Shown here: one piece after another, positions 2,727 through 35,045 of the stretch | Layout of the letters: each line of letters opens with the position of its first letter | Numbering within the stretch: the stretch's first letter is position 1 | DNA from: Candidatus Fermentibacteraceae bacterium | Lineage (GTDB): Bacteria > Fermentibacterota > Fermentibacteria > Fermentibacterales > JCC-6 | Reading direction: 5' to 3' | Length of the DNA: 35,045 nt | NCBI GenBank assembly: GCA_041686025.1 | Contig: JAWLEP010000026.1 | Span: 7,476-42,520 of the forward strand | Position numbers and translations under genes: made by a program | Notes under the pieces: generated by a model | What the model saw: only the letters and a program-made list of their open reading frames with translations | Told to the model about the DNA's origin: nothing | The model's database searches: none

Positions 2727-4010
2727 GTGGCTGAGGGCTTCAATCCGTACAAGATGGCCCAGGAGCAGTTCGACGCTGTAGCCGAGAAGCTGGGTCTCGA
2801 CCAGGGGGCCAGGGAGCTCCTGCGCAGGCCCATGAGGGAGTTCCACTTCACCATCCCGGTGAAGATGGACGACGGCAGCGTAAGGGTGTTCCAGGGATTC
2901 CGGGTCCAGCACAGCGACGTCCGCGGCCCCGCCAAGGGCGGCATCCGCTTCCACCCCCAGGAGACCGCCGACACCGTTCGCGCGCTGGCCACCTGGATGA
3001 CCTGGAAGACGGCGGTGGTGGACATCCCCCTCGGCGGCGGCAAGGGCGGCGTCATCTGCGACCCCCACGAGCTGTCCGCCCGGGAGCAGGAGCAGATCTG
3101 CCGCGGCTGGATTCGCCAGATCTGGAGGAACATCGGTCCGGTGCAGGACGTGCCCGCCCCCGACGTGATGACCAGCGCCCAGCACATGCTGTGGATGATG
3201 GACGAGTACGAGACCCTCTCCGGGGGCAAGTACCCGGGCGTCATCACCGGCAAGCCGGTGGGCATCGGCGGCTCGCTGGGCCGCACCGAGGCCACCGGCT
3301 ACGGCGCAATCTACACCGTCCGCGAGGCCCTGAAGCGCATGGGGCGCGACATCACCCAGACCACCATGGCCTGCCAGGGCTTCGGCAACGTAAGCCAGTA
3401 CGCGGCCGATCTCTACACCCAGTACGGGGGCATGGTGGTGTGCGTCTCCTGCTGGGACCAGAAGGACATGAAGGCCTACACCTACCGGAAGATGGACGGC
3501 ATCGACCTGGAGTTCCTGCTCTCCATCACCGACCGCTTCGGCACGGTGGACGCCGACAAGGCGGTGGAGGCCGGCTACGAGAAGCTCCCCGGCGAGGCCT
3601 GGATAGAGACCGAGGCCGACATACTCCTTCCCGGCGCCCTGGAGAACCAGGTGAACGGCGAGACGGCGAAGAAGATCAGCGACAAGGTCATCATCCTGGC
3701 GGAGGGAGCCAATGGGCCCACCACCCCCGAGGCCGACGAGATCCTCAGGGAGAAGGGCATCTTCAACATCCCCGACTTCCTCTGCAACGCCGGGGGGGTC
3801 ACCTGCTCCTACTTCGAGCAGGTACAGAACAACATGAACTACTACTGGGAGAAGGACGAGGTCCTCTCCAAGCTGGACACCAAGATGACCAACGCCTTCC
3901 ACGCTGTGGCCGACCTGGCCGAGGCCCGCGACGTCTACATGCGCGACGCCGCCTACATGATCGCCATCCAGCGGGTGGCGGAGGCGGCCCGCTACCGCGG
4001 CCTGGTCTAG
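2727..4010 (+). CDS. gdh: Glu/Leu/Phe/Val dehydrogenase, family-II (Clostridium/Thermotoga-like) glutamate dehydrogenase
   Basis: GPAKGGIRFHP, MTWKTA, PLGGGKGG, DVPAPD, ITGKP, GRTEATGYG, QGFGNV, EGANGPTT, PDFLCNAGGV; RBS AGGAGGT at 2714-2720 before GTG. Confidence 0.95.
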   Translation: MAEGFNPYKMAQEQFDAVAEKLGLDQGARELLRRPMREFHFTIPVKMDDGSVRVFQGFRVQHSDVRGPAKGGIRFHPQETADTVRALATWMTWKTAVVDIPLGGGKGGVICDPHELSAREQEQICRGWIRQIWRNIGPVQDVPAPDVMTSAQHMLWMMDEYETLSGGKYPGVITGKPVGIGGSLGRTEATGYGAIYTVREALKRMGRDITQTTMACQGFGNVSQYAADLYTQYGGMVVCVSCWDQKDMKAYTYRKMDGIDLEFLLSITDRFGTVDADKAVEAGYEKLPGEAWIETEADILLPGALENQVNGETAKKISDKVIILAEGANGPTTPEADEILREKGIFNIPDFLCNAGGVTCSYFEQVQNNMNYYWEKDEVLSKLDTKMTNAFHAVADLAEARDVYMRDAAYMIAIQRVAEAARYRGLV

Positions 4011-5408: not shown

Positions 5409-5599
5409 GTTACCGACCCCCTTCGAAATACCCCCATGCTATATATGCTGGAAGAGAGGGGGCCGGCAAATCTGTTCTTCCAGGATTGAGATGAGGAAGA
5501 TCAGCCCCCCATTGTATCCGGCGGTTGTCGCGGGGGCCGGTCTCCGCAAGATTATGCAGACAAGATGGCGGGCATCCATTCGGGAAACGGGAGGAACGC

Positions 5600-15804: not shown

Positions 15805-17135
15805 GCGCACCGGGCCCGGCCCGCCGTCTGCTGCGGGCCGCAGGCTGGCTGCTGCCGGCGGCGCTTCTGGCCGCAGGCTGCGGGGAGAGCCGCCCCAGCT
15901 TCCTGCTGGTGGTGGTGGACGCCCTCCGGGCCGACCACCTGGGCTGCTACGGCTACCACCGGGACACCTCCCCGGCCCTGGACAGCCTGGCGGGCGCCGG
16001 CGTCATGTGGACCCGGGCCCAGGCCCAGGCGCCCTGGACGCTTCCCGCCGGGGCCTCCATCCTCTCCGGGCTGTCGGTCCGCTCGCACCGGGTCGGGCAG
16101 ACGGCCTCCCACCTGTACGGCATGTCCCCGGAGATGCCCACCGCGGCCACCCTGCTGTCCGCGGCGGGATACGCCACCGCCGGGCAGGTCAACGGCTACT
16201 GGCTGGGGCCGGACTTCGGCTTTCACCGGGGGTTCGGGAGTTTTTCCGCCTACCCCAACGGCCACGGCAGGGCCCGGCTGGCGGTGGACGAGATCATCGA
16301 CATGATCGGGGAGCTGGACCCGGACAGGCCCTTCTTCGCCTTCCTGCACCTCTACGACCCCCACTCCCCCTACCATCCCCCCTCGGAGTACGGCGGGCTG
16401 TGGGCCGAGGACCCCGGCGGCGGGCGGTTCCACTGGGACGTCGACCACCTCGCCGGCGTGGTGCGCGACCCGGAGAACAGGCAGCGCTACGTGAACCTCT
16501 ACGACGGCGAGATCAGGTGGACGGACGCCCAGCTGGCCAGGCTGTTCGCCTGGCTGCGGGAGACCGGCAGGGCGGAGACCACGGTGGTCATCGTCACCGC
16601 CGACCACGGCGAGGAGTTTCTGGACCACGGCTGGGTCGAGCACAGCGTCACCCTGTACCAGGAGGTGCTGCACGTGCCCCTGCTGGCGGCGGGGCCGGGA
16701 ATGCCCCGGGGCGTTGTGGACTCCACTGTCGTGGGCCAGATAGACCTGCTGCCCACCATGCTGGAGATGGCCTCCGCCGAGATTCCCCGTCACCTGGAGG
16801 GCCGGCCCATGCTGCCGACGGGCTCCGGGGCCGGGCGGGTCATGCCCTCCAGCGGCCCCACCCCCGAGCACAGCCCCTCCGGAACCGTCCGTGACCGGAA
16901 CCGGGTCGCCGTGAGGCAGGGCGACCGGAAGCTGATCTGGGACGCCGACGCGGACAGCGCCGTGATGTACGACCTGGCCGCAGACTCCGGGGAGATGAGC
17001 CCCCTTCCCCCCGACAGCGGTCTTCTGCGCGAGGCCATGCGGCACTGGGCCACCCCCCGGGCCTTCGAGCCGGTGGAGGTGGAGGGGCCGGAGGGGGAAG
17101 AGGCGGACATGCTCCGGGACCTGGGCTACATCTAG
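15801..17135 (+). CDS. Sulfatase-like hydrolase/transferase (alkaline phosphatase superfamily), probable lipoprotein
   Basis: ATGA overlap; lipobox-like LAAGC; VVVDALRADHLG, PWTLPA, HLYDPHSPY, YDGEI, TADHGEEF, LHVPL, DLLPT, LRDLGYI. Confidence 0.85.
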   Translation: MSAPGPARRLLRAAGWLLPAALLAAGCGESRPSFLLVVVDALRADHLGCYGYHRDTSPALDSLAGAGVMWTRAQAQAPWTLPAGASILSGLSVRSHRVGQTASHLYGMSPEMPTAATLLSAAGYATAGQVNGYWLGPDFGFHRGFGSFSAYPNGHGRARLAVDEIIDMIGELDPDRPFFAFLHLYDPHSPYHPPSEYGGLWAEDPGGGRFHWDVDHLAGVVRDPENRQRYVNLYDGEIRWTDAQLARLFAWLRETGRAETTVVIVTADHGEEFLDHGWVEHSVTLYQEVLHVPLLAAGPGMPRGVVDSTVVGQIDLLPTMLEMASAEIPRHLEGRPMLPTGSGAGRVMPSSGPTPEHSPSGTVRDRNRVAVRQGDRKLIWDADADSAVMYDLAADSGEMSPLPPDSGLLREAMRHWATPRAFEPVEVEGPEGEEADMLRDLGYI

Positions 17136-19873: not shown

Positions 19874-20448
19874 GGTCCGGAAGCGCCTTTCTGTGTGAGC
19901 CTGCGCAGCCCTCCGGCCACCTCCGCCGCCCGTCCGGGATGGTCGGGGTGGGCCGTCCTTATCCACAGGTAGCGGATGTAGCGGGGCTGCAGCCTGCCCA
20001 TGGCCTCCACCAGCATCCGGCAGAACTCCCCCACCGGGAGCTTGCCGTGGCGGGCCCCCAGGACGGGGACCGACACCGCCTCCAGCTCCCTGATCTCCGC
20101 CTCCTCCAGGCTGGCCCCCAGGGCGGATGCGATCCACTCCCGCCTCCAGGTGGGGTCTGCGGACAGGTCGTGCACCACGGCCAGTATGGACAGCGGGCTG
20201 CCCCCTCGGACCACCACGGAGCCCGGGTCCCGGGGCCGGAAGCCCTCCAGCTCGGAGAGAGCGTCCTCCAGGGAGGCCCCGCCGTCTCCGTAGTCGGCCG
20301 GGGCGGGGGAGCTGAGGACCAGGCAGGTGTCCTCCTCCTCCACGGCCGCGGCCACCGGAAAGGGCGGGAGGCCCTCCGGAGCCACGGAAACGTGCACCGA
20401 GCCCATCACCAGCCGCAGCTCCCCGGACCGCCGGCTTCCCGCAGTCAA
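19870..20448 (-). CDS. Hypothetical protein, possible degenerate macro domain
   Basis: Fills the gap between two genes with TTGA overlaps at both ends (alternative ATG start 20406); PGSVVV, ILAVVH, ALGASLEEAEIRELEAVSVPVLGARHG resembles the macro C-terminal SIAxPxxGxG element. Confidence 0.55.
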   Translation of the reverse strand: MTAGSRRSGELRLVMGSVHVSVAPEGLPPFPVAAAVEEEDTCLVLSSPAPADYGDGGASLEDALSELEGFRPRDPGSVVVRGGSPLSILAVVHDLSADPTWRREWIASALGASLEEAEIRELEAVSVPVLGARHGKLPVGEFCRMLVEAMGRLQPRYIRYLWIRTAHPDHPGRAAEVAGGLRRLTQKGASGP

Positions 20449-23400
20449 CGGACCCCCTCGCCCCCCCGGTCGCCCGAGCACCCCGCTTCCAGCCGCCTCT
20501 CCAGCCTGGCCAGCCGCCGGCCGGCCTCCGGGAGCAGGTCGCGGGTCATCCTGTACAGCCGCAGCCTCTGCAGGGTCTCGGTACGGGTCCTTCCGTCGGA
20601 GAGCACCTCCCGCAGCCTCCCCGGGGCCTCCCGCTCCCGGCCCAGGGCGGCCAGGGCCCGGGCCTCCAGGCCCGCCCGCCACAGCCTGCCCCGGGGGTAG
20701 TCGGCCATGTCCATGGCCTCCAGCCTCTCCAGCACCCCCTCGGGTCCGCCGGGCAGCCCGGCCTCGCAGGCCAGCAGCCTGACGTCATGGGCGCAGACCA
20801 TGGAGAAGGTTGCCAGCTCCAGCGGCCGGGACGCCGAGTCCAGGGCCTGCAGTCCGGCTGCCGCAGCCTCGGCGGCCTCCGCCCTCCTGCCCGCCGACAG
20901 GTCGACCCCGGCCCGGCAGTGGCTCAGCACCAGCGGGTCTATCACGCCCCAGCAGGAGGCCCTGTGCAGCATGCCCGTGGCCCCGGGGGCGTCGCCGCAG
21001 GCCTCCAGGAGCAGGGAGTGCACCAGCTGCGCGCAGGCCATGGCCTCCGGGTCGTCGGTCCGGCCGGCCAGCTCCGTCGCCCTCCGCAGCCCCGCCAGCG
21101 CCCTTCGGGGCCGCAGGGCCCTCAGGTGCGCCCGGGCCAGCACCAGCAGCCCCCAGATGCTGCCCCACAGCGATAGCGACTCCTCCGCCGACTCCACCGC
21201 TGCGGACGCGGCCCGCGCCGCCTCCGCCACCCGTCCGGCGTACAGGAAGACCTCGGCCTGGTCGTAGCGCAGCCACCAGGGCGCCAGGCCCTTCGGGGAG
21301 GTTTCCGTGGCCCTTCTCACCGCCCTGCCGGAGTACTCGGCGGCCCCGGCGAAGTCCCGCCTGCTGAGGCGGACCAGCGCCCGCTTGTGCAGCACGGTGA
21401 ACGGCGCCGGCCCCGAGGGCCCCGAGGGCAGGCCCGCCAGCTCCCTCTCCGCATCCTCCGGCCGGCCCAGCCTGGTTAGGACGTCCGCCCGCTCCAGCCG
21501 CACGAAGTCCTCCAGGTCCCCGGCTCCTCCGGTCTCGATGCGGCCCAGCTCCCGCAGGGCCAGGTCGTTCTCGCCCATGATGCGCAGAGTGGAGGCCGCC
21601 CGCAGCAGAGCCCGGGCCCGCAGGCGGTCCATCCCGGCCTTCACCGCAGCCTCCGCCGCCTTCAGGGCGAAGCCCCGGCCCCTCCGGTGCATCCCGGAGT
21701 CGATGCAGGCCTCCGCCGCCTCCAGGGCGGTCTCCGCCGTGCGGACGGGGTCCCGCCGCTGCGGGGGAAGCCCCTCCAGGAGCCTCACGGCGGCTGCCAG
21801 GTGCTCGGCGGCAACGTGCACCAGCCCGCACCGCCGCAGCTCCCCGGCCGCGGCCAGCCGCTCCTCCAGGGCCTCGTCGCGGCTGCCGGCGCTCTCCAGG
21901 TGGACGGCGGCCATGGCCCGGTCTCCCGAGGCCCTGTACATGTCCGCAACGGCGGAGTGGAACGTGGACCGCAGCCCCCCCGAGAGGCGGGAGAGAAGCC
22001 CCTCCCGCAGGTAGGCGGCGGCCAGCTCGAACCGCATGGGGTCGGGGCAGGCCCGGAGCAGGCCCAGCCTCTCGGCGTCGTCGAAGCAGCTGAGCACCTG
22101 GCCCTCCTTCAGGGAGGTCAGGCGGGCAACGGTGTCTACATCGAAGCAGCGGCCCACGGTGGCGGCAAGGGCCAGCAGCCGCAGGTCCTCCCCGGGGAGG
22201 CGGTCCAGCCGGCTGCGGACGAAGGACCTTATGCGGGTGCCGGGCCCGGGCCTTCTCCCGTCGGATGCGGAGAGGCTCCGCTCCTCGTCCAGGCGCAGCA
22301 GACCGGCGTCGTTGAGACCACGCAGGTGCTCGGTGGCCAGCAGCGGGATTCCGCCGGAGACCTCCATCAGCTCCCCGGACAGCTCGTCGGAGACGGATTC
22401 GGCCCCCAGGCGGGCCCTGGCCAGCTCCCGGACCCCCTCTTCGTCCAGGGGGGGCACCTCCATCACCGCGGCCAGGGGATGGTCCGCCAGCTCCGCCGCC
22501 GGGGGAGGCTCGGGGGAGCGGATGTCCTCGGTGCGGACGGCGCACCCTACTGAGAGGTCGGTAGCATTGGCGTGGCTCAGCACGTAGGAGAGCAGGGACA
22601 CGCTGGCGTCGTCCAGCCACTGGGCGCCGTCGGCCACCACCACCGCCGGGGTCCAGGCCCGCAGCACGGCGGAGAGGGCGTCCAGCAGCACGAAGTGCTC
22701 CAGAAGGGGAGGAGCGCCTGCGCGCTCGCTGCGGGGGAAGAGGTCGGGCAGAAGCCCGCTCAGGACGTCCGACATGGCCGGGTCCACCTCCGGAAGCCCG
22801 TAGTCGCGCACGCCCTCGCGGACGGAGGCCAGCACCGCGGCGTAGGGGACCCGGGACAGCTCGGCCGACCCCGCCAGCCTCAGCACCCGTACGTCGTCGG
22901 GCAGCCTTTCCACTGCCGTCTCCAGCAGTGTGGTCTTGCCCGCGCCGGACTCGCCGGTGATGACCACCAGGGCGCACTCCCGGCCCGGGTAGAGGCGGGA
23001 GTGCAGCTCGGCCAGCAGCTCCCGGCGTCCGGTGAAGACTCCGCGGTGCCAGAAGAGGTCGTGGCCCTCGCGCCACCGCAGCATCCTCCCGCCCCCGGAC
23101 TCCTTGGCCGAACGGGCCGCCATGCCGGCCAGGGCCAGGAGGTCGGCCCCCGACTCGGAGTCCCCCGGGAACAGCGACTGGCCGATGCTGGCCCGGATGC
23201 CCCAGTTCTCCGTCAGAAGGCCCTCGGTCTCCCTCAGCAGCCTCCTGCCCGGGCCCACCTCGTTGCCCGGCCGCAGCCCCGGGGACAGCACCACGAACTG
23301 GTCTCCTCCGTAGCGGAAGACCGCGTCCGCCTCCCGCAGGATTCCCGAAAGCAGACGGGCGGTCTCCATCAGGGCCCTGTCACCGCATTCGGCCCCCTTG

Positions 23401-23579
23401 CTGCGGTTCAGCTCCGCCAGCCCGGAGAGCTCCACGAAGAGCAGGCCGAACGGCCCCTCGCCGGCGGTTAGCTCCTGCAGGCGGACGGCCAGCGCCCTGC
23501 GATTGGGCAGGCCGGTGAGGTGGTCGACCAGCTGCTGCTGGTCGCTGCCCCCGGCTGCGGGTCCGGCCCTGTCCGGCAT
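20445..23579 (-). CDS. Degenerate GGDEF domain + STAND-type AAA ATPase + helical/TPR-like repeats
   Basis: DHLTGLPNRR, RYGGDQF; FTGRRELL, Walker A GESGAGKTT, Walker B VVADGAQWLD, SGGIPL; Ala/Arg-rich helical C-terminus; ATG 23579 preceded by GGGAGG (alternative ATG 23600). Confidence 0.85.
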   Translation of the reverse strand: MPDRAGPAAGGSDQQQLVDHLTGLPNRRALAVRLQELTAGEGPFGLLFVELSGLAELNRSKGAECGDRALMETARLLSGILREADAVFRYGGDQFVVLSPGLRPGNEVGPGRRLLRETEGLLTENWGIRASIGQSLFPGDSESGADLLALAGMAARSAKESGGGRMLRWREGHDLFWHRGVFTGRRELLAELHSRLYPGRECALVVITGESGAGKTTLLETAVERLPDDVRVLRLAGSAELSRVPYAAVLASVREGVRDYGLPEVDPAMSDVLSGLLPDLFPRSERAGAPPLLEHFVLLDALSAVLRAWTPAVVVADGAQWLDDASVSLLSYVLSHANATDLSVGCAVRTEDIRSPEPPPAAELADHPLAAVMEVPPLDEEGVRELARARLGAESVSDELSGELMEVSGGIPLLATEHLRGLNDAGLLRLDEERSLSASDGRRPGPGTRIRSFVRSRLDRLPGEDLRLLALAATVGRCFDVDTVARLTSLKEGQVLSCFDDAERLGLLRACPDPMRFELAAAYLREGLLSRLSGGLRSTFHSAVADMYRASGDRAMAAVHLESAGSRDEALEERLAAAGELRRCGLVHVAAEHLAAAVRLLEGLPPQRRDPVRTAETALEAAEACIDSGMHRRGRGFALKAAEAAVKAGMDRLRARALLRAASTLRIMGENDLALRELGRIETGGAGDLEDFVRLERADVLTRLGRPEDAERELAGLPSGPSGPAPFTVLHKRALVRLSRRDFAGAAEYSGRAVRRATETSPKGLAPWWLRYDQAEVFLYAGRVAEAARAASAAVESAEESLSLWGSIWGLLVLARAHLRALRPRRALAGLRRATELAGRTDDPEAMACAQLVHSLLLEACGDAPGATGMLHRASCWGVIDPLVLSHCRAGVDLSAGRRAEAAEAAAAGLQALDSASRPLELATFSMVCAHDVRLLACEAGLPGGPEGVLERLEAMDMADYPRGRLWRAGLEARALAALGREREAPGRLREVLSDGRTRTETLQRLRLYRMTRDLLPEAGRRLARLERRLEAGCSGDRGGEGVR

Positions 23580-23611
23580 GCCAGGCCTCCCTTCCTCCAT
23601 ACTCTAGGCAA

Positions 23612-23712: not shown

Positions 23713-26055
23713 ATGGATACAGCCGTCAACGTGGAGCCGCAGTCGGAGAAGATGCCCAGGTGGAAGGTGATAATCGACCTCCTGGCCGAGACCAACCAGC
23801 TGCTGCTGAAGAGGATAGGTCGGCTTATGATGAACTACCTCTTCCGCCGCAACGTCCCCCAGATGAAGGAGATGATGCAGCAGCTGCTGATCAGGGGCGA
23901 GGAGGACTTCGAGACCGGCGCCGCCTACGGCGAGAACCAGCCCATGGAGCGGATAAACTACGCCGCCCTGGAGCGGTTCATAGACGACGTCTTCCAGGTG
24001 GCCGCCGAGGAGCTTCAGGACGAGGAGATCAACTCCATGCTCTCCATCTGGATCAAGTCGGAGTCCACCAGGTTCCTCTCCGTCACCGCGGAGAAGCGTG
24101 ACGTCCGTCTGGGCGAGCTGGCCGAGAGCCTGCAGCGGTTCGCCATGCTCCCCGAGAGCCAGAAGTCGCTGGGCCACGAGGAGTGCATAGGCATCAAGGT
24201 GGCCCTGATCCGCCGGCTGCTCACCGAGGACCTGCACTACATCAACACGCTGAAGACCCACGTGTCGGTGGATGACTTCGTAAGCGTCCTCCGCCGCACC
24301 ATCGGCCCCGTGTCCGGCAACGGCAAGCTGGGGGGGAAGTCGGCCGGCCTCTTCCGGGCCCGGCAGATACTGGAGTCCCGCCGCCGGGACCACGTGGTTC
24401 TCCGCAACCTGAGAGTCCCGAAGACCTGGTACATAACCTCCGACGCCATCGTCGACTTCGTGCACCACAACGCCCTCGAGGAGCTGCTGTCCATAAAGTA
24501 CTCCGACCCCAGCGAGATCCGCCAGGAGCACATATACCTCAGGCAGATATTCAAGAACTCCCTTCTTCCCACCGAGATAATGGCCGGCCTGAGCATGGCC
24601 CTGGACGACCTGGGCGACGTTCCCCTTGTGGTCCGCTCCTCCAGCCTGCTGGAGGACAGCACCGGCGCCGCTTTCGCCGGCAAGTACCGCAGCCTCTTCG
24701 TGGCCAACCGGGGCAGCAAGGAGGAGCGGCTGGACGCCCTGGCGGACGCGGTCCTGGAGGTCTACGCCAGCGTCTTCGGCCCCGACCCCATAGAGTACCG
24801 CCGCGAGCGCGGCCTGCTGGACTTCAACGAGGAGATGGGGATACTGATACAGGAGGTGGTGGGCCACCGCCTGGGGGACTACTACTTCCCCGCCTTCGCC
24901 GGCGTTGCCTTCAGCCAGAACGATTTCCGCTGGTCTCCCCGAATCCGCCGCGATGACGGCATCATACGCCTGGTCACCGGCCTGGGCACCAGGGCGGTGG
25001 ACAGGGTGGGGGACGATTTCCCGGTGCTGGTGAGCCCGGGCAAGCCCGGCCTGCGGCCCAACGTCACGGTGGACGAGACCATCCGCCACGCGCAGAAGAG
25101 CCTGGATGTGATAAACCTCAAGACCCGCCGCTTCGAGACCGTCTCCTTCCAGGAGCTCTTCGACCGATTCGGAAGCGACTACCCCACCCTCAGCTACATC
25201 ATCTCCCTGGAGAAGGACGGCCGGCTGCAGCCCCCCATGGGCACACTGTTCAACGTGGAGCGGGAGCATCCTGTGGTGACCTTCGAGCGGCTCATCAGCA
25301 ACAGCCCCTTCATACTGCTGATGAAGACGGTCCTGGACACCCTGCAGGAGGAGATCGGCATGCCGGTGGACGTGGAGTTCGCCTACGCCGACGACATACA
25401 GGTCCCCTACCTGCTGCAGTGCCGGCCCCAGAGCCACGGGGTCGAAGGCCTGAGGGTGGAGTTCCCCCGGGAGGTTCCGCAGGAGGACGTGCTCTTCACC
25501 GCAGACCGGTACGTCACCACCGCGGAGACCAGGGGGATAGAGTACCTGGTGTACGTGGACCCCCTGGAGTACGACCTGCTGGACAGCCGCGAGAAGCTGA
25601 TCAACGTAGGCAGGCTGATCGGCCGGATCAACGAGAAGCTCCCCCAGAAGCGCTTCGTGCTCATGGGACCCGGAAGATGGGGCAGCCGCGGCGACATCAA
25701 GATGGGCGTGCAGGTGGGCTACAGCGACATCAACCGCACCGCCATACTGATAGAGATAGCCCGCTCCAAGAAGGGCTACGTCCCAGACCTCTCCTTCGGC
25801 ACCCACTTCTTCCAGGACCTGGTGGAGGCCGGCATCCGCTACCTGCCGCTTTACCCCGACAGCGAGGGGGTGGTGTTCAACGAGGAGTTCTTCGACTCCG
25901 CCCACAACTGCCTGCCCAAGATGGTCCCCGGCAGTCGCGAGCTGGCCCACGTGGTCAAGGTCATCCGGGTGGAGCGGGAGGTCAGCGACGCTACGGTAAC
26001 GGTGCTGATGGACGGCGACACCGAACGGGCCATGGCCTACCTGGACAGGGGCTAG
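23713..26055 (+). CDS. PEP-synthase/PPDK-like ATP-grasp domain protein (paralog 1), N-terminal helical region, no receiver domain
   Basis: LGGKSAGL, VRSSSLLEDSTGAAFAGKY, MGILIQEVVG, GLGTRAV, PVDVEFA, LLQCRP; C-terminal GPGRWGS..SFGTHFFQD; RBS GGAGG 23703-23707. Confidence 0.85.
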   Translation: MDTAVNVEPQSEKMPRWKVIIDLLAETNQLLLKRIGRLMMNYLFRRNVPQMKEMMQQLLIRGEEDFETGAAYGENQPMERINYAALERFIDDVFQVAAEELQDEEINSMLSIWIKSESTRFLSVTAEKRDVRLGELAESLQRFAMLPESQKSLGHEECIGIKVALIRRLLTEDLHYINTLKTHVSVDDFVSVLRRTIGPVSGNGKLGGKSAGLFRARQILESRRRDHVVLRNLRVPKTWYITSDAIVDFVHHNALEELLSIKYSDPSEIRQEHIYLRQIFKNSLLPTEIMAGLSMALDDLGDVPLVVRSSSLLEDSTGAAFAGKYRSLFVANRGSKEERLDALADAVLEVYASVFGPDPIEYRRERGLLDFNEEMGILIQEVVGHRLGDYYFPAFAGVAFSQNDFRWSPRIRRDDGIIRLVTGLGTRAVDRVGDDFPVLVSPGKPGLRPNVTVDETIRHAQKSLDVINLKTRRFETVSFQELFDRFGSDYPTLSYIISLEKDGRLQPPMGTLFNVEREHPVVTFERLISNSPFILLMKTVLDTLQEEIGMPVDVEFAYADDIQVPYLLQCRPQSHGVEGLRVEFPREVPQEDVLFTADRYVTTAETRGIEYLVYVDPLEYDLLDSREKLINVGRLIGRINEKLPQKRFVLMGPGRWGSRGDIKMGVQVGYSDINRTAILIEIARSKKGYVPDLSFGTHFFQDLVEAGIRYLPLYPDSEGVVFNEEFFDSAHNCLPKMVPGSRELAHVVKVIRVEREVSDATVTVLMDGDTERAMAYLDRG

Positions 26056-26056
26056 C

Positions 26057-29000
26057 TTGGCCCTGGGCGGAGGCCTCACCGACCCGCGCATAGACGCCCT
26101 GGCCGGCCGCCGGGGGGCCGACCCGGTTCCCTTCTGGTCGCTGATGTCCAACAGGGTCCGCCGGGTGCTGCTGGTCTCCAGCCTCTACGACTCCTACGCC
26201 CTGGAGGAGGACGGCAGCTTCACCGAGCTGCTGTTCAGCGAGTACCTGGAGCTGAACCTCCGCTACGCCCCCCACATCGTGAGGGTCTCCACCCCCGCCG
26301 AGGCCCTGCAGCGGCTGGACTCCGAGGGCTTCGACCTGGTTATCTACATGCTGCAGGTCTCCGACCGCTCCCCGGCGGACTTCGCCGCCGAGATCCGGCG
26401 CAGGGGCGGAGAGATGCCCCTGGTGGTGCTGGCCTACAGCACCCGGGAGCTGGAGCTGCTGCGCCGCGCCGGCAGGCTGGAGGGCGTGGACCGGGCCTTC
26501 ACCTGGCAGGGCGACGCCCGGCTGTTCCTGGCCATAGTGAAGTCGGTGGAGGACCGGCTCAACGCCCAGCCCGACCGGGAGACCGCCGGGGTGAAGGCCA
26601 TCGTACTGGTGGAGGACTCCATCCGCTTCTGCTCCTCCTACCTGCCCATGCTCTACACCGAGCTGATGCTGCAGACCCAGACCCTGATGACCGACGGCGT
26701 CAACCAGATGCAGAAGCTGCTGCGCATGCGCGCCCGCCCCAAGATCCTCCTGGCCACCACTTTCGAGGAGGGGATGGAGCTGTTCGAGGAGTTCCGCACA
26801 GACCTGCTGGGCCTGATAGTGGACGCCCGCTTCCCCAGGGGTGGAGAGGTGGAGGCGAAGGCGGGCCTGGAGCTGGCGGAGGTGGTCCGCCGCAGGGCCC
26901 CGGACTGCCCGGTGCTGGTGCAGTCCTCCGAGGAGGAGAACCGCCAGCCGGCCGCCAACATCGGCGCGGCCTTCATCAACAAGGAGTCCCCCACGCTGCT
27001 GGCGGAGGTCCGGGCCTTCATGCAGGACTACCTGGGCTTCGGAGACTTCGTCTTCCGCGGCCCCGACGGCGAGGAGGAGGCCAGGGCCAGCGACCTCACC
27101 GAGATGCTGGCGGCCCTGAAGGGCGTCTCCGACGAGACGCTGGTCTTCCACGCCCGCCGCAACGACTTCTCCAAGTGGCTCATGGCCCGCACCGAGTTCG
27201 AGCTGGCCCGGGCGCTGCGGCCGCAGAGGGTGGAGGACTTCGAGAGCCCGGGGCACATGCGCGCCTACCTGCTGGCCGAGGTCCGCCGCTGGCGGCGCCA
27301 CTACCGGGCCGGAGCGGTGGAGGAGTACTCGCCGGAGACCTTCGGCCACGGCGCGGAGTTCGTCCGCATCGGCCAGGGCTCCCTGGGGGGCAAGGGCCGC
27401 GGCCTGGCCTTCTTCCACGCCCTGATGAACCGCTACCGCATAGCCGACCGCTTCGCCCAGGCCCGGATATTCGTCCCCCAGACCGCGGTCCTGGCCACCG
27501 ACGTTTTCGAGGAGTTCATGAGGGACAGCGACCTCTACGATATGGTCTACACCGAGGAGCGGGAGCTGGGCGAGGACCCGGCCGGCCGCGACCGGAGGAT
27601 AGAGGAGGCCTTCACGGAGGCGGAGCTTCCCGCCCGCACCCGCGAGGCCCTGGCCTCCTTCCTGGACTCGGTGGACTACCCGCTGGCCGTCCGCTCCTCC
27701 AGCCTGCTGGAGGACTCCCCCGCCCAGCCCTTCGCCGGCGTCTACGAGACCCACCTGATCCCCAACGACCACCCCGACGCCGAGGTCCGTCTGGGGCAGC
27801 TGTGCACCGCGGTGAAGCGGGTCTGGGCCTCCACCTACAAGTCCGACTCGGTGAGCTACATCGACTCCACCCCCAACCGCCTGGAGGACGAGCGGATGGC
27901 GGTGGTGATCCAGCAGCTGGTGGGCCAGCGCCACGGAGACTGGCTCTACCCCACCGTCTCCGGCGTGGCCCGCAGCTACGACCTCTACCCGGTGGAGGGG
28001 GCCGACCCGGAGGAGGGGGTGGTCTGCGCCGCCCTGGGCTTCGGCGAGAAGGTGGTCTCGGGAGGCCAGTGCGTCCGCTTCAGCCCCGCGAAGCCCGGCA
28101 GGCTCTACGGCCTCTCATCACCGAAGGACTACCTGGACGCCACCCAGAGGGACTTCCTGGCGCTGCGCATGGCCGAGGAGCGCAGCGAGGCCGCCCGCCT
28201 GCAGAAGCTGCCCCTCTCCGAGGCGCAGGAGCACGGCACGCTGGACGCGGTGGGCTCCACCTACGCAGCCGCTGACGACCGCCTCTACCCCGGGACGTTT
28301 CGGGAGGGCGCCCACCTGGTGACCATGTCCGGCGTCCTGCAGGGTGACCGATTCCCCCTGGCCGGTCTGCTGGAGTTCCTGCTGGAGGTGGGGAAGGCCG
28401 GCTTCTCCTGCGACATCGAGGTCGAGTTCGCCGTGAACCTCTTCGCCGACCGCGGCCACCTGGCCGGGGAGCTGGGCTTCCTGCAGATCAGGCCCATGGG
28501 CTTTCGCAAGGACCCGGGCAAAGACCTCTCCGACGTCCGCCCCGGAGACACCATCGTCCTCTCCGAGCAGGTCCTGGGCCAGGGCAGCATAGAGGGGGTC
28601 ACCGACATCATCTACGTCCCCTCGCAGGGCTTCGACCGCGCATCCAGCACCAAGGCCGCCGCCGACGTGGGCCGGCTAAACGCCCGCCTGCGCCGGGAGG
28701 GAAGGAAGAGCCTGCTCATCGGCCCCGGCCGCTGGGGAAGCGCCGACCCCTGGCTGGGCATCCCCGTCCACTGGTCGCAGATATCCACCGCCGCCTGCAT
28801 CGTGGAGACCCACCTGCCGGGCCTGGAGGTGGAGCCCTCCCAGGGCACCCACTTCTTCCAGAACGTCACCTCGCTGGGCATAGGCTACTTCACCATGACC
28901 ACGGGCGACGGCCACCTGGACCTGGAGTGGCTGCAGGCCCAGCAGCCCCTGCAGACCGAGGGCCACGCCCGGCTGATCCGCACCGACGCCCCCCTGCAGA

Positions 29001-29068
29001 TCCACATCGACCGCCGCAGCGGCCGCGGCGCCATCCAGCCGCCCCGAACAGGGTCAGACGTCAACTAG
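26057..29068 (+). CDS. Receiver-domain-containing PEP-synthase-like ATP-grasp protein (paralog 2)
   Basis: Two CheY-like regions (LVED..LIVDARFP..VQSS..FINKES); LGGKGRGL, VRSSSLLEDS..FAGVY, VVIQQLVG, IEVEFAV, FLQIRPM, GPGRWGS, SQGTHFFQN; TTG start directly after upstream stop. Confidence 0.85.
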   Translation: MALGGGLTDPRIDALAGRRGADPVPFWSLMSNRVRRVLLVSSLYDSYALEEDGSFTELLFSEYLELNLRYAPHIVRVSTPAEALQRLDSEGFDLVIYMLQVSDRSPADFAAEIRRRGGEMPLVVLAYSTRELELLRRAGRLEGVDRAFTWQGDARLFLAIVKSVEDRLNAQPDRETAGVKAIVLVEDSIRFCSSYLPMLYTELMLQTQTLMTDGVNQMQKLLRMRARPKILLATTFEEGMELFEEFRTDLLGLIVDARFPRGGEVEAKAGLELAEVVRRRAPDCPVLVQSSEEENRQPAANIGAAFINKESPTLLAEVRAFMQDYLGFGDFVFRGPDGEEEARASDLTEMLAALKGVSDETLVFHARRNDFSKWLMARTEFELARALRPQRVEDFESPGHMRAYLLAEVRRWRRHYRAGAVEEYSPETFGHGAEFVRIGQGSLGGKGRGLAFFHALMNRYRIADRFAQARIFVPQTAVLATDVFEEFMRDSDLYDMVYTEERELGEDPAGRDRRIEEAFTEAELPARTREALASFLDSVDYPLAVRSSSLLEDSPAQPFAGVYETHLIPNDHPDAEVRLGQLCTAVKRVWASTYKSDSVSYIDSTPNRLEDERMAVVIQQLVGQRHGDWLYPTVSGVARSYDLYPVEGADPEEGVVCAALGFGEKVVSGGQCVRFSPAKPGRLYGLSSPKDYLDATQRDFLALRMAEERSEAARLQKLPLSEAQEHGTLDAVGSTYAAADDRLYPGTFREGAHLVTMSGVLQGDRFPLAGLLEFLLEVGKAGFSCDIEVEFAVNLFADRGHLAGELGFLQIRPMGFRKDPGKDLSDVRPGDTIVLSEQVLGQGSIEGVTDIIYVPSQGFDRASSTKAAADVGRLNARLRREGRKSLLIGPGRWGSADPWLGIPVHWSQISTAACIVETHLPGLEVEPSQGTHFFQNVTSLGIGYFTMTTGDGHLDLEWLQAQQPLQTEGHARLIRTDAPLQIHIDRRSGRGAIQPPRTGSDVN

Positions 29069-29137
29069 TCAACTATTTTGCCCCAGCCGGATAGGCCCAG
29101 CCCACGAAAATAGTTGACTAGTTGACGTCTGACCCTG
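29049..29137. repeat. 89-bp element with perfect 31-bp inverted repeats (MITE/REP-like)
   Basis: CAGGGTCAGACGTCAACTAGTCAACTATTTT (29049-29079) and its exact reverse complement (29107-29137), 27-bp spacer. Confidence 0.9.
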
Positions 29138-29140
29138 ATC

Positions 29141-29177
29141 GAAAGAAGGGGCGGCGGAAGACCCGCCGCCCCTCTTC
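29141..29177 (-). terminator. Intrinsic terminator of gdhA, possibly bidirectional
   Basis: Minus strand reads GGGGCGGCGG-GTCTT-CCGCCGCCCC-TTCTTTC. Confidence 0.75.
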
Positions 29178-29200
29178 GCTGCATGGCATGTGGCTGTGGG

Positions 29201-30656
<1,456 letters not shown>

Positions 30657-30687
30657 GACTTGTCGGATCGGCGGAGTAGGAAAATGC

Positions 30688-30716
30688 TTGACCTTCTCCG
30701 CGGCCTCCTGTATGGT
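30688..30716 (+). promoter_or_regulatory. Candidate sigma70 promoter for paralog 3 and nfnAB
   Basis: TTGACC (30688-30693) N17 TATGGT (30711-30716), A-tract just upstream. Confidence 0.6.
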
Positions 30717-30803
30717 GGCAACTCAAGACCGACAAAACCCCTGGCACAACCCAACTACGAGGAGAGGCACCCGGGCTTTGACCACCCTCCCCGCGGCCGT
30801 TCG

Positions 30804-33788
30804 ATGAGACCCGACAGCGCCGCCTCGGCCCCCCTGAGGCTGGAGGGAGAGCACACCCGCCGTCTGAAGTCCCTGATGCCCTTCCGGGTGGGCAGCGTAC
30901 TGCTCTTCTCCAGCGTCTACGACTACTTCGTCCTGGAGGCCGACGGCCGTCTCAACGACCTCCTGGGCGCCGCCTACAGCCGCCGCAACTACGGCTACAT
31001 CCCCGAGCTGGACCACGCCGGCGGGCTGGAGGAGGCGAAGGCCCTCTTCGAGGAGCGGGGCCACGACCTGGTGATATGCATGCCCGGCCCCCGCGACGAA
31101 GACGCCCTGGAGCTGGCCACGGCCGTCAAAGAGGCCTCCCCGCAGACGCCGGTGGTGGCCCTGGTCCACGACCTGCCCGGCAGGCATTCCACACCCTGGT
31201 CGGGGCCGGACTCTCCCTTCGACCGGGTCTTCGTCTGGCTGGGCGACGGCGAGACCCTGCTGGGCATAATCCAGCTGGCCGAGGACGCCCGCAACGCCGC
31301 CCACGACACCGAGAAGCTGGGGCTGCACGACCTGCTGCTGGTGGAGGGGGACGCCTTCTTCTACTCCCGCTACCTCCACCGGGGCATGGAGGTGATCCGC
31401 GAGCAGATGGGGGCCATCCTCCAGCGGGAGGAGTCCCTGGCCCGCCGCCGGCTGAAGGCCCGGCTGCGGCCCAAGGTGCTCATGGCCTGCAGCGCAGAGG
31501 AGGCCGGGGAGATACTGCAGGCCCACGGCAGCCACCTGCTGGGCCTGATCACCTCGCTGGGCTTTCCCCGGGGCGGCCGCAACGATCCCAACGCCGGAGC
31601 CGACATCGTACGCCTGGCCCGACAGATGAGCCCGGGCCTCCCGGTGCTGGTTCAGTCCGCCCGGCCCGACGCGGCCAAGATCGCCGAGGAGCTGGACGCC
31701 GGCTTCATCTCCAAGCACTCCAACACGCTGATGGCCGACCTGGCAGGACAGCTGCGGGAGCGGTTCGGCTTCGGAGGCTTCCGGTTCGCCCGACAGGACG
31801 GCAGCACCGTACGCACGGTGGAGAACGTCCCCGCCGCCATGCTGGCCGCCGAGAAGCTCCCGGCGGACGTGGTGGCCCGGGCCCTGCGCAGCCGCAGCCT
31901 CACCAGGTGGCTGCGGGTGCACACCGAGCTGGAGCTGGCCGCCCGGCTGGAGGGGGTCGTCGAGGAGCACGGGGAGGAGGACGACACCTCCCTCCGGCGC
32001 CGGGCCTTCGCGGAGATGCAGGTCTGGCGCGAGGAGTCCCACCGCGGCATGGTGGTCCCCTACTCCCGCAGCTTCTACGAGTCCTGGGCCCGCTTCAGCC
32101 GCATAGGCTCGGGCTCGGCGGGGGGCAAGGGCAGGGGGCTGGCCTTCATCGACCGGGTGCTGGCCAACAACCTCGACCCCGGCCGCTGGCGCCGGGTGAG
32201 CGTGACCATCCCCCGCACCCTGGTTCTCACCACCGACGTCTTCGACGAGTTCGTCCGCAGAAACGACCTCCTGGACTACGCCCTCGGCGACAGGATGGAC
32301 CTGCAGATAATCGGCCGCTTCCTCCGCGCCGACCTCCCGCCCACCATGCTGGGCGACCTCCGCGACTTCCTCCGCGAGGTGCGCACCCCCCTGGCCGTCC
32401 GCTCCTCCAGCCTGCTGGAGGACGCCCTCTACGAGCCCTTCGCCGGGGTCTACTCCACCAAGATGCTGCCCAACGACGACCCCAGCTTCGACACCCGCTT
32501 CAACCACCTGGACAACGCCATAAAGCTGGTGATGGCCTCCACCTTCCTCCGCGACGCCCGCTCCTACATCGAGGCCACCAGCCACCGGGTGGAGGAGGAG
32601 AAGATGGCGGTGCTGATACAGGAGGTGGTGGGCGGCCGCCACGGAGACCTCTTCTATCCCCACTTCTCCGGTGTGGGCCGGTCCTACAACTTCTACCCGG
32701 TGGGCTCGGCGGGCCCCGAGGACGGCGTGGTGAACGTGGCGCTGGGCCTGGGCAAGACCATCGTGGACGGGGGGATGTCCCTGCGCTTCACCCCCCGCTA
32801 CCCCCGGGTCCTTCCCCAGCTGGGCACCGTGGAGGACGCCCTGGACAACACCCAGCGCAGCTTCTGGGCCGTGGGCCTGAAGGGCAGCTCCTACGGCCCG
32901 CCGGAGCAGGAGGACCAGTTCATGGCCTCCGCCGACCTGCAGCGCGCCGAAAGAGACGGCACCCTCACCTACCTGGCCTCCACCTACGACGCGGGAAACG
33001 ACCGCCTCCGCGACGGCATACAGTCCGCCGGCGCCCGGGCGGTGACCTTCGCCCACATCCTCAAGGCCAAGGTCTTCCCCCTGGCCGACATTGCCCAGAC
33101 CCTGCTGGACATGGGCCAGGAGGCCATGGGCTGCCCGGTGGAGATAGAGTTCGCCGTGGTGCTGGGGGAGGACCGGCCCCTGCCGGCGGACTTCTCGCTT
33201 CTGCAGATCAGGCCCATGGTGGCCCAGCGGGGTGCGGCCGAGGTGGACCTGGAGGAGATGGACCTCCACCGGGCCCTGGTCCGCAGCGGCCAGGTGCTGG
33301 GCAACGGCGTCCGCGACGACATCCGCGACATCGTCTACACCAAACCCGAGGCCTTCGACGCCGCCCACACCCCGAAGATGGCGGCGCAGATCGAGCGGCT
33401 CAACGGCAGGCTTTCCGCCGAGGACCGGCCCTACCTCCTGGCGGGCTTCGGCCGCTGGGGGTCCTCCGACCACTGGCTGGGGGTCCCCGTCCGCTGGGGC
33501 CAGATAAGCGGGGTAGGGGCCATCGTGGAGGCCACCAGGCAGGGCATGAACGTCGATGCCTCCCAGGGCAGCCACTTCTTCCAGAACATGACCTCCCTGG
33601 GGGTATCCTACTTCACCGTCTCCCATACCGATCCGGCCTCCGACATCGACTGGGAGTGGCTGGATTCCCTACCGGCTGTGGAGGAAACCGATTACCTTCG
33701 GCACGTGCGCCTGGAGTCCCCCCTCACCGTGGCTGTAGACGGAAGGAAGGGGGCCGGGGCCGTACTCAAGCCGAACTCTGCACAATAG
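30804..33788 (+). CDS. Pseudo-receiver-containing PEP-synthase-like ATP-grasp protein (paralog 3)
   Basis: Colinear with paralog 2; AGGKGRGL, VRSSSLLEDA..FAGVY, VLIQEVVG, PVEIEFAV, LLQIRPM, GFGRWGS, SQGSHFFQN; start ATG 30804 is uncertain. Confidence 0.85.
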   Translation: MRPDSAASAPLRLEGEHTRRLKSLMPFRVGSVLLFSSVYDYFVLEADGRLNDLLGAAYSRRNYGYIPELDHAGGLEEAKALFEERGHDLVICMPGPRDEDALELATAVKEASPQTPVVALVHDLPGRHSTPWSGPDSPFDRVFVWLGDGETLLGIIQLAEDARNAAHDTEKLGLHDLLLVEGDAFFYSRYLHRGMEVIREQMGAILQREESLARRRLKARLRPKVLMACSAEEAGEILQAHGSHLLGLITSLGFPRGGRNDPNAGADIVRLARQMSPGLPVLVQSARPDAAKIAEELDAGFISKHSNTLMADLAGQLRERFGFGGFRFARQDGSTVRTVENVPAAMLAAEKLPADVVARALRSRSLTRWLRVHTELELAARLEGVVEEHGEEDDTSLRRRAFAEMQVWREESHRGMVVPYSRSFYESWARFSRIGSGSAGGKGRGLAFIDRVLANNLDPGRWRRVSVTIPRTLVLTTDVFDEFVRRNDLLDYALGDRMDLQIIGRFLRADLPPTMLGDLRDFLREVRTPLAVRSSSLLEDALYEPFAGVYSTKMLPNDDPSFDTRFNHLDNAIKLVMASTFLRDARSYIEATSHRVEEEKMAVLIQEVVGGRHGDLFYPHFSGVGRSYNFYPVGSAGPEDGVVNVALGLGKTIVDGGMSLRFTPRYPRVLPQLGTVEDALDNTQRSFWAVGLKGSSYGPPEQEDQFMASADLQRAERDGTLTYLASTYDAGNDRLRDGIQSAGARAVTFAHILKAKVFPLADIAQTLLDMGQEAMGCPVEIEFAVVLGEDRPLPADFSLLQIRPMVAQRGAAEVDLEEMDLHRALVRSGQVLGNGVRDDIRDIVYTKPEAFDAAHTPKMAAQIERLNGRLSAEDRPYLLAGFGRWGSSDHWLGVPVRWGQISGVGAIVEATRQGMNVDASQGSHFFQNMTSLGVSYFTVSHTDPASDIDWEWLDSLPAVEETDYLRHVRLESPLTVAVDGRKGAGAVLKPNSAQ

Positions 33789-33828
33789 CGCGGGCCATGC
33801 CCGATGTTGCCAGGAGAGGAGCCACCGT

Positions 33829-34683
33829 ATGCACACCATCACAGGCAAGGAGCAGCTGGGGCCCGACATCCACCGCTACGTCGTGGATGCCCCGCGCATA
33901 GCCCGAATGCGCAAGCCCGGGCAGTTCGTGATCATCCGCATATGCGAGGAGGGGGAGCGGATCCCCCTCACCATAGCCGACGCCGACCCCGACGAGGGAA
34001 CCATCACCCTGGTGGTGCAGGCGGTGGGGAAGACCACCCGCCAGATGGCCATGATGGAGGCCGGCGACCACATACGCGACGTAACCGGCCCCCTGGGCAA
34101 GCCCACCCACATCGACCGCTTCGGCACCGTCCTCTGCGTGGGCGGCGGCATAGGCAACGCCCCCCTCTACCCCATAACCAAGGCCCTCCAGGAGGCGGGC
34201 AACCACATCATCTCCATACTGGGCGCGCGCACGAAGGACCTCTTCATACTGGAAAGGGAGATGGCCTCGGTGAGCGACCGGGTGGTGATCACCACCGACG
34301 ACGGCAGCTACGGCATGAAGGGCCTGGTCACCGACGCCATCGAGAAGGTGGTGAAGGAGGACGGCGTGGACGCCGACCTCTGCGTGGCCATAGGCCCGCC
34401 TATAATGATGAAGTTCGTCTGCCTGCTCACCCGTGAGCTGGGCATACCCACCATCGTCAGCCTCAACCCCATAATGGTGGACGGCACCGGGATGTGCGGC
34501 GGCTGCCGGGTCTCGGTGGACGGGAAGATAAAGTTCGCCTGCGTGGACGGCCCGGAGTTCGACGGCCACCAGGTGGACTTCGACGAGCTGATGGCCCGCC
34601 TGCGCACCTACAGCCCCCACGAGCGGAAGGCCATGGAGAGACACGAAGAGGCCTGCAGGGCCCTGGCCGGAGAGGAGGAGTAG
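33829..34683 (+). CDS. nfnA: NfnA/SudB: electron-bifurcating transhydrogenase small subunit (FAD, 2Fe-2S; PyrK-like)
   Basis: KPGQFVIIR, GERIPLTIAD, GPLGKP, GGGIG, TDDGSYG, SLNPIMVDGTGMCGGCRV, FACVDGPEFDGH; RBS GGAGAGGAG. Confidence 0.9.
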   Translation: MHTITGKEQLGPDIHRYVVDAPRIARMRKPGQFVIIRICEEGERIPLTIADADPDEGTITLVVQAVGKTTRQMAMMEAGDHIRDVTGPLGKPTHIDRFGTVLCVGGGIGNAPLYPITKALQEAGNHIISILGARTKDLFILEREMASVSDRVVITTDDGSYGMKGLVTDAIEKVVKEDGVDADLCVAIGPPIMMKFVCLLTRELGIPTIVSLNPIMVDGTGMCGGCRVSVDGKIKFACVDGPEFDGHQVDFDELMARLRTYSPHERKAMERHEEACRALAGEEE

Positions 34684-34686
34684 CCC

Positions 34687-35045
34687 ATGCCCATCAACGC
34701 CAAGGAACGGCTCAGCATACCCCCTCACCCCATGCCCGAGCAGGACCCCGGGGAGCGCACCCGCAACGTCCTGGAGGTCCCCCTGGGCTACGACGCCGAG
34801 ACCGCCCGCGCCGAGGCGAAGCGCTGCCTGCAGTGCAAGACCCCCTTCTGCATGGAGGGCTGCCCGGTGGGGATAGACATACCCGCCTTCCTCCAGGCCA
34901 TAGAGGACGGCGACTTCCGGGAGGGCATCCGCATAATCAAGGAGAAGAACCTCCTTCCCGCCGTCTGCGGCCGGGTCTGCCCCCAGGAGACCCAGTGCCA
35001 GCTGGAGTGCACCGTGGGCAAGGTCCGCAAGGACCCCACCAAGGC
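34687..35045 (+). CDS. nfnB: NfnB/SudA (GltD-like) large subunit, 3'-truncated by window edge
   Basis: Not in ORF track; translates MPINAKERLSIPPHPMPEQDPGERTRNVLEVPLGY..EAKRCLQCKTPFCMEGCPVGIDIP..NLLPAVCGRVCPQETQCQLEC; adjacent to nfnA. Confidence 0.9.
   Translation, partial: MPINAKERLSIPPHPMPEQDPGERTRNVLEVPLGYDAETARAEAKRCLQCKTPFCMEGCPVGIDIPAFLQAIEDGDFREGIRIIKEKNLLPAVCGRVCPQETQCQLECTVGKVRKDPTK

Follow-up and report, generated by a model that had tools for sequence, protein, structure and literature searches.

The DNA analyzed here (the window) is a stretch of 35,045 nucleotides (nt) from a Candidatus Fermentibacteraceae bacterium (assembly GCA_041686025.1, contig JAWLEP010000026.1, positions 7,476–42,520 of the forward strand). 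It encodes three paralogous proteins, termed A, B, and C, around gdhA, a gene for glutamate dehydrogenase (GDH). The paralogs belong to a real, widespread, and uncharacterized variant of the phosphoenolpyruvate (PEP)-utilizing dikinase superfamily, one that lies outside the PEP synthase, pyruvate phosphate dikinase (PPDK), rifampin phosphotransferase (RPH), and histidine kinase families; the labels “PEP synthase” and “histidine kinase” attached to many members in databases are wrong. Tentatively, and at somewhat less than even probability, A, B, and C may be regarded as one family of dikinase-type phosphotransferases that are gated by sensor modules and modify their cognate GDH in trans. Below, gdh1 denotes the class of gdhA, and gdh2 that of a second GDH gene in the window. 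The features on which the argument rests are as follows.

23713..26055, + strand: paralog A, 780 aa; all-helical N-terminal domain (aa 1–200), PPDK_N ATP-grasp domain (aa 205–575), His/swivel-like domain (aa 573–780)
26057..29068, + strand: paralog B, 1003 aa; pseudo-receiver, canonical receiver, ATP-grasp domain (aa 442–817), His/swivel-like domain (aa 814–1003)
28496..29065, + strand: C-terminal domain of B, as modelled; predicted swivelling beta/beta/alpha-type fold with the His at the N-terminus of model helix 119–126
30804..33788, + strand: paralog C, about 994 aa; pseudo-receiver, degenerate second receiver, ATP-grasp domain, His/swivel-like domain (His codon 33573)
29201..30562, − strand: gdhA (gdh1), NADP-GDH family (NF006929, 739.5 bits, above cut-off); the class that accompanies B-type genes
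33829..34683, + strand: nfnA/sudB-like flavoprotein gene (NF004862, above cut-off), 40 nt past C
34687..35045, + strand: nfnB/sudA-like gene, 5′ part, cut by the end of the window
2727..4010, + strand: second GDH gene (gdh2), 33% identical to gdhA; best family GdhA_Arch, under cut-off

B has a TTG start located 1 nt past the stop of A. The start of C is uncertain, its frame being open from 30660. A first-pass annotation of the window had the paralogs flanking gdhA, with one of them leading into nfnAB; this arrangement was found, with the correction that gdhA lies on the minus strand, tail-to-tail with B and head-to-head with C. The nfnB gene is truncated at the contig end, and its final 32 residues are identical (100%) to the beginning of another contig of the genome (C76).

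ATP-grasp and His domains, N-terminal modules, and family breadth

The PPDK_N domain (PF01326), the N-terminal ATP-grasp criterion for PEP synthases and PPDKs, was found above the Pfam cut-off in all three proteins (E = 1e-52, 4e-39, and 2e-34). The motifs listed in the first-pass annotation (GGK, VRSS, FAG.Y, IQ..V, EFA, LQ.RP, G.GRWGS, and G[TS]HFFQ) were each located once in every protein, and the invariant His codons were where it had placed them, at 25804 (His698 of A), 28850 (His932 of B), and 33573 (C). According to PMC4844700, RPH requires Lys22, Arg117, and Thr136, and the β-phosphate of ATP goes to its His825. The equivalents of the three required residues are K446, R546, and T565 in B and K209, R308, and S327 in A, the latter set being invariant in 57 A-type rows. 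Among 433 family proteins, GGK was kept in 429 and [VI]RSS in 432. The NCBIfam models for PEP synthase, RPH, and PigC aligned to only a part of the ATP-grasp domain, with scores far under their cut-offs.

The C-terminal PEP/pyruvate-binding barrel was absent, as had been annotated: no match to PEP-utilizers or PEP-utilizers_C was obtained with Pfam at E ≤ 0.1 in A, B, or C, and the proteins end 190–208 aa past LQ.RP. The length of this tail had been put at about 170–200 aa, which describes B and C (190 aa) and falls short of A (208 aa). A central substrate-binding domain of the RPH/PigC type between the ATP-grasp and His domains was absent by spacing in 402 proteins; the median distance from the QxR motif of the ATP-grasp domain to the His was 123–129 aa, too short a stretch to hold an acceptor domain. 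With no substrate domain either between or after these domains, an acceptor has to be supplied by another chain or by a small conserved insert.

The His was invariant in 150 of 150 aligned domains, alongside G76, R79, G81, G88, S115, and G117, although the loci in this alignment had been retrieved with patterns that included the His motif, making the count circular. In a less circular count, the His was present in 260 of 269 database proteins, the remaining 9 being unscored by the pattern. The C-terminal domain of B was modelled with AlphaFold2 (pLDDT 91.2, pTM 0.88). The top structural match among 48,161 chains was the His domain of RPH (5hv1, residues 756–867; Z = 6.8–6.9, root-mean-square deviation 3.5, 112 aligned residues), followed by the swivel domain of pyruvate kinase, a DRTGG domain, PPDK, and enzyme I (EI); six of the top seven rows were swivel domains of RPH, pyruvate kinase, PPDK, or EI. 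In a second structure search, RPH, PPDK, or EI occupied 15 of the 16 top rows. The top matches to RPH, PPDK, and EI swivel domains had Z = 5.5–6.9 over most of the domain. In swivel domains, the catalytic His is found at the start of a helix after a strand and a loop; in the model, the conserved His is predicted to begin helix 119–126 after strand 99–105 and a loop, perhaps in the canonical register. The His domain is assigned a swivel-type fold, in line with the first-pass annotation, and with moderate confidence only, since the Z-scores are under 8, the range in which the program warns of a mere common arrangement.

The low Z-scores and the circularity of the alignment-based His count weigh against this assignment and the mechanism built on it, as do the results of several other comparisons. 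Foldseek returned no match at E ≤ 0.001 (RPH was at rank 3), a profile search of the PDB with the His domain yielded 0 matches, and PF00391 was not among the Pfam families listed for 150 members. An hhalign comparison to a shallow, 30-row swivel profile had a probability of 0.9%, and hidden Markov model (HMM) and register tests for swivel homology performed no better than shuffles. A by-eye sequence resemblance to the swivel family around the His was dropped after the profile, HMM, and register tests. A search of the ESM Atlas gave no usable match.

The N-terminal portions of the proteins differ. Two paralogs had been annotated as bearing receivers; these are indeed B and C, but each carries two receiver-like domains, the first of which has no phospho-Asp. 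At that site, Met predominated among 264 aligned B/C N-termini and is present in both B (Met98) and C. The second receiver of B is canonical (E186, D187, D256, S290, K309; the Pfam receiver was found in B) with Asp256 encoded at 26822. Among B-type proteins, Asp256 was conserved in 76/76 from GTDB loci and 151/153 from databases, and Lys309 in all. In the second receiver of this C, one Asp is changed to Ser (31554) and another to Gly, and the same changes occur in a same-genus relative; 11 of the 13 C proteins of the phylum retain the Asp. The N-terminus of A contains no receiver. Its all-helical domain had no clear fold match (best Z = 6.2 over 49 residues), and a resemblance to the HPr-binding domain of EI found no support in the fold search. 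In the DNA retrieved per locus, a receiver-bearing paralog was present in only 17 of 80 A-type loci, and at 13 of the 80 a GDH gene lies directly upstream of A without any such paralog. Given the receiver-less A and short C proteins and a C that has lost the Asp, the family can do without a receiver, which is best understood as an input; self-phosphorylation of Asp256 is conceivable.

Paralog A is a short form that lacks the GAF-like start and the nucleotidyltransferase (NTase) end found in most relatives. Among 80 A loci, a GAF-like N-terminus was present in 64 (weak Pfam support was obtained in one of three tested), and a C-terminal Pol-beta NTase (PF01909) also in 64; the signature GS..SDxD occurred in 64 of 72 long tails. 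A metallophosphoesterase gene accompanied 42 of 61 NTase-bearing A loci vs. 0 of 21 NTase-less ones, with 17 loci being too short to score. Across the 70 genomes of this bacterium’s phylum, the phosphoesterase was found in every one of the 22 with a long A and in no others, the 34 with only a short A included (“long” was judged by frame length, and the NTase was checked in seven). The NTase and phosphoesterase of the long-A relatives possibly constitute an add/remove pair. The NTase is absent from the proteins of the window, one query found no match to it in this genome, and the only phosphoesterase in the genome is a distant one (27–30%).

A search with B gave 7020 matches among 8000 scored candidates, and a profile of the C-terminal domain recovered 2278 clusters (50% identity). 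Among named relatives, those nearest to B come from Candidatus Fermentibacteria. Members occurred in 64 of the 70 genomes from this phylum and, among 201 genomes sampled from Bacteroidota (the phylum of a Flavobacteriaceae locus), in 42. A is 28–29% identical to B and C, and B is 38% identical to C. A FastTree phylogeny was calculated from 69 rows, comprising at most 16 sampled per labelled group from 255, the three window proteins, and the two units of a protein designated P0134; 28 rows of uncertain architecture were left out. A-type proteins, together with a KaiC-like-fused type, were apart from B and C, and a clade of receiver-less, short C proteins was present. A, B, and C of the window fell in separate groups shared with proteins from outside this phylum sample. 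A, B, and C are old subfamilies, and the separate placement rules out a recent local triplication. Natural fusions were also observed: P0121, P0122, and P0123 join a short C unit, a GAF-like domain, and an A unit, with or without an NTase, and P0134 has two units with a KaiC/RecA-like domain between them (by eye; there is a weak PAXNEB match). The fusions suggest that the paralogs work in pairs.

Linkage to glutamate dehydrogenase

A neighborhood survey bore out the proposed association with gdh. In the sample of 201 Bacteroidota genomes, a family member lay within 10 kb of gdh in 35 of the 42 family-bearing genomes vs. 0.9 expected, a comparison whose significance is overstated because kin are not independent. 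Counted by gene, 58 of 70 family genes were within 10 kb of gdh; the corresponding figure for Leu/Phe/Val-dehydrogenase-like control genes was 0 of 19. Two sets of loci were then compared: 80 multi-phylum loci retrieved with a B-led alignment (B/C-query loci) and 80 A-type loci. A GDH gene was present at 37 of the 80 B/C-query loci and at 23 of the 35 that reached 20 kb.

The two GDH classes were distributed unevenly between these sets. The gdh2 class was found at 46/80 A loci vs. 5/80 B/C-query loci, and the gdh1 class at 17/80 A loci vs. 34/80 B/C-query loci. Across the 70 genomes of the phylum, A and gdh2 were both present in 53 and both absent in 12, with 5 discordant; classes in this count were assigned by search scores and sequence-checked in 20 fetched regions. 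Kinship among the genomes inflates the significance of these class counts as well. In relatives, genes of the gdh2 class directly precede A-type genes. In the window, gdh2 is ~20 kb from A. The short A, the failure to match an NTase, and the merely distant phosphoesterase lead us to read the window as a reduced A system with gdh2 20 kb off, plus a B that has moved next to a conserved A-gdhA-C-nfnAB block.

The gdh2 class carries an inserted loop with conserved Trp243 and Tyr251 that is absent from gdhA and from three other class-II GDHs. By comparison with four sequences, H62, H114, H153, and Y251 (the last in the class-specific loop) are leads as candidate acceptor residues on gdh2.

The first-pass annotation had also offered Nfn as a target. 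As a target it has weak support, and as a general partner it was rejected: nfnA was seen at a single one of the 80 B/C-query loci and at 8 of the 80 A-type loci. Of the 20 regions fetched from this phylum, 7 had the gene directly past C, and the adjacency of C and nfnAB is a habit of the lineage, not a rule of the family.

Other arrangements were noted in the survey. In Parabacteroides distasonis (NZ_OY725790.1, locus L223), gdhA is divergent from a B-like “PEP/pyruvate-binding domain” gene, and the locus continues with a phosphatase-family gene, a nucleotidyltransferase-family gene, and a second NADP-GDH gene. At some Bacteroidales loci without gdh, a B-type gene is followed by a cyclic nucleotide monophosphate (cNMP)-binding domain fused to an aspartase/fumarase-type lyase:

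L014:10700-12574 and L031:10709-12574: cNMP-lyase fusion; the cluster is also in L008 and L040

Tandem B-like pairs without gdh nearby were seen at L003, L012, L013, L020, L021, L024, L028, L036, L050, and L061. One partner of the pair is often an HFFHN variant, and the neighbors, by eye, include 2-oxoacid:ferredoxin oxidoreductase and proline dehydrogenase.

Proposed mechanism and alternatives

In the mechanism that we favor, the ATP-grasp domain would bind ATP and pass its β-phosphate to the invariant His, with release of AMP and Pi as in RPH; the residues and the fold are as described above. The His domain would then swing out and hand the phosphate in trans to a partner, most likely the cognate GDH, which would thereby be switched. 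Transfer in trans to GDH is deduced from the lack of an acceptor domain and from the way the genes pair by class. The N-terminal modules would gate this reaction as inputs: a pseudo-receiver and receiver in B and C, a GAF-like and a helical domain in long A proteins, and none in short C proteins. A-type proteins, with C-type partners, would serve gdh2-class GDHs and B-type proteins gdh1-class GDHs, in keeping with the pairing observed at the gene level. The strictest form of this proposal is that the paralogs are protein dikinases that use the β-phosphate of ATP and a swivelling phospho-His to phosphorylate a class-matched GDH, gated by receiver or GAF-like modules and extended in many lineages by the NTase and phosphoesterase; we consider it possible, leaning toward doubtful.

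Several observations count against the proposal. No gdh was present in the retrieved DNA at 43 of 80 B/C-query loci or at 12 of the 35 that reached 20 kb, and other neighbors recur, such as the cNMP-aspartase-type lyase. Gene neighborhood also speaks for a shared function, not for a substrate. The ATP-grasp and swivel enzymes described so far act on small molecules or glucans, and we know of no protein example of such dikinase-type kinase chemistry.

In an unlikely alternative, the paralogs are small-molecule dikinases or ATP-dependent ligases at the glutamate/2-oxoglutarate node, with chemistry like that of RPH or PigC and with receivers gating a metabolic enzyme. The acceptor site would come from the G.GRWGS insert, a partner paralog, or a GDH-bound metabolite. 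The nearest fold and family matches (RPH, PigC/RedH, PRK06241) are all small-molecule enzymes, the invariant G76, R79, G81, and G88 around the GRWGS insert resemble a ligand site, the paralogs occur as pairs and as the fusions P0121–P0123 and P0134, and further amino-acid-catabolic neighbors recur. A dedicated substrate domain is nevertheless absent, and since the two GDH types have their metabolites in common, a pairing by class agrees better with protein recognition than with a shared metabolite; the differing sensor modules of the three paralogs also suggest regulation. The pairing is also explained, along with the co-loss and without new protein-kinase chemistry, if ATP turnover and His phosphorylation switch only the conformation of the paralogs, which would then bind the GDH hexamer to inhibit or activate it non-covalently. 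GudB-GltAB and the complex of Thermus GDH with an APRT homologue are parallels, and the large helical domain of A, which has no matched fold, could bind a partner. This explanation, which we rate as rather unlikely, leaves unaccounted for both the joint gain and loss of the NTase and phosphoesterase with long A and the retention of the full dikinase machinery in all paralogs.

The first-pass annotation had proposed a relay, in which a dikinase engine phosphorylates its own His and then a receiver Asp, giving signalling that is independent of histidine kinases. The strong conservation of the second receiver in B-type proteins (Asp256, Lys309) is in accord with this scheme, and no histidine kinase gene was recognized among the 40 commonest neighbor clusters of 80 loci (by eye, from the starts of the sequences). 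As the core of the system, however, a path from ATP through phospho-His to receiver Asp is not borne out: A-type proteins and the short C clade have no receiver, none was present in the retrieved DNA at 63 of 80 A loci, the Asp has been lost in this genome’s C, and the proteins have no further output domain. A receiver joined to an enzyme is moreover an ordinary response-regulator layout, and PMC5847659 files REC-PPDK proteins as such. The accompanying claim that no HATPase_c kinase is involved held for A, B, C, and the contig, none of which has a match; the genome as a whole has 29 HATPase_c matches, which also count against the relay. We regard the relay as improbable, and the interpretation in the first-pass annotation is, taken together, partly supported. 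That the paralogs are ordinary PEP synthases or PPDKs, as some database labels imply, is very improbable indeed. The PPDK_N domain and weak matches to PEP synthase models (NCBIfam) speak for it, but the best of those models scored ≤88 bits vs. cut-offs of 598–883, the pyruvate-binding barrel is missing, and PPDK-like and EI-like swivel sequences are encoded by two other PEP-utilizers genes of the genome.

In anaerobes, the gut Bacteroidales among them, GDH determines the flow among glutamate, 2-oxoglutarate, ammonium, and NAD(P)H, and the family may be an unrecognized switch for this central nitrogen enzyme. If the protein dikinase reading is true, a covalent control of GDH like that exerted by GlnD/GlnE would exist across many phyla. 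The family would be categorically new only if the acceptor proves to be a protein, in which case a new kinase chemistry would be added to bacterial signalling. The family is large, and in Parabacteroides distasonis, a gut species that can be cultured, an orthologue of B, WP_041525632.1, stands next to gdhA, which makes the question directly testable.

Known systems and surroundings of the locus

The family was compared to described systems. RPH (PDB 5hv1/5fbu; PMC4844700) likewise has at its N-terminus an ATP-grasp domain with the Lys22/Arg117/Thr136 residues and has no pyruvate barrel, and the best structural match is to its C-terminal His domain. It differs in that a large rifampin-binding domain separates two domains that the family joins directly; the family, for its part, has a linkage to GDH, sensor modules at the N-terminus, and a His motif of the form SxG[TS]HFF accompanied by a GRWGS insert. 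PEP synthase and PPDK also place a swivel-type His domain straight after PPDK_N, whereas the family has no C-terminal barrel, a His domain that PF00391 does not recognize, and scores far below cut-offs. The PigC/RedH ligases and the PRK06241 “PEP synthases” share ATP-grasp similarity with it (E = 1e-8 to 1e-25 over ~150–200 aa); the match is confined to that domain, the family has no substrate domain, and the scores are 25–88 bits vs. cut-offs of 827–1350.

GlnD and GlnE are nitrogen-regulatory nucleotidyltransferases. The long A-type relatives resemble them in having a Pol-beta NTase beside a metallophosphoesterase and a nitrogen enzyme. In contrast to GlnD/GlnE, long A proteins have a minimal NTase domain joined to a unit that resembles a dikinase, and the A protein of this genome is without one.

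The activity of Bacteroides GdhA reportedly depends on trans-acting genes downstream of gdhA, to go by the title of a 1996 paper by Baggio and Morrison, and older work is said to describe reversible inactivation of the GDH of Bacteroides fragilis. The family is a candidate for the trans-acting gene or genes. No mechanism for these genes or for the inactivation was found in the literature searched. The locus tags BT1970-1972 led nowhere, BT1971 being a catalase.

The REC-PPDK architecture has been named in print as a response-regulator type, with no function given (PMC5847659). The architecture is that of B and C; the part of the account that was available includes no His domain, GDH link, or receiver-less members. 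No published characterization of the family or its link to GDH was found, supplements and most subscription journals being outside the coverage, and the family goes unmentioned in the consulted passages of PMC4539542, PMC5552732, PMC12596196, and bioRxiv 2023.05.11.540287.

Two further features lie between B and gdhA.

29045..29141, no strand: dispersed palindromic repeat; 35-nt arms, 97% complementary, with a 27-nt spacer; overlaps the stop of B
29147..29178, − strand: G+C hairpin, terminator-like, after the gdhA stop

The palindrome and the adjacent hairpin fold at z = −13, and related copies are present on nine contigs of the genome. No Rfam family was matched anywhere in the window, the palindrome included. 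The palindrome is a REP/MITE-like dispersed element and no part of the A/B/C system.

Divergent from A, a 1051-aa GGDEF-AAA/STAND ATPase-TPR protein is encoded at 20445–23600 (− strand); it is not a common neighbor among relatives. At 8155–17135 (+ strand), two CotH-kinase/lamin-tail proteins (one with a weak match to a secretion tail), two beta-helix proteins, and a sulfatase are encoded in a row. An amidohydrolase, a C1-like peptidase, an M1 peptidase, and a weakly matched Macro-domain gene (4083–6937 and 17132–20682) give both GDH genes peptide-degrading surroundings.

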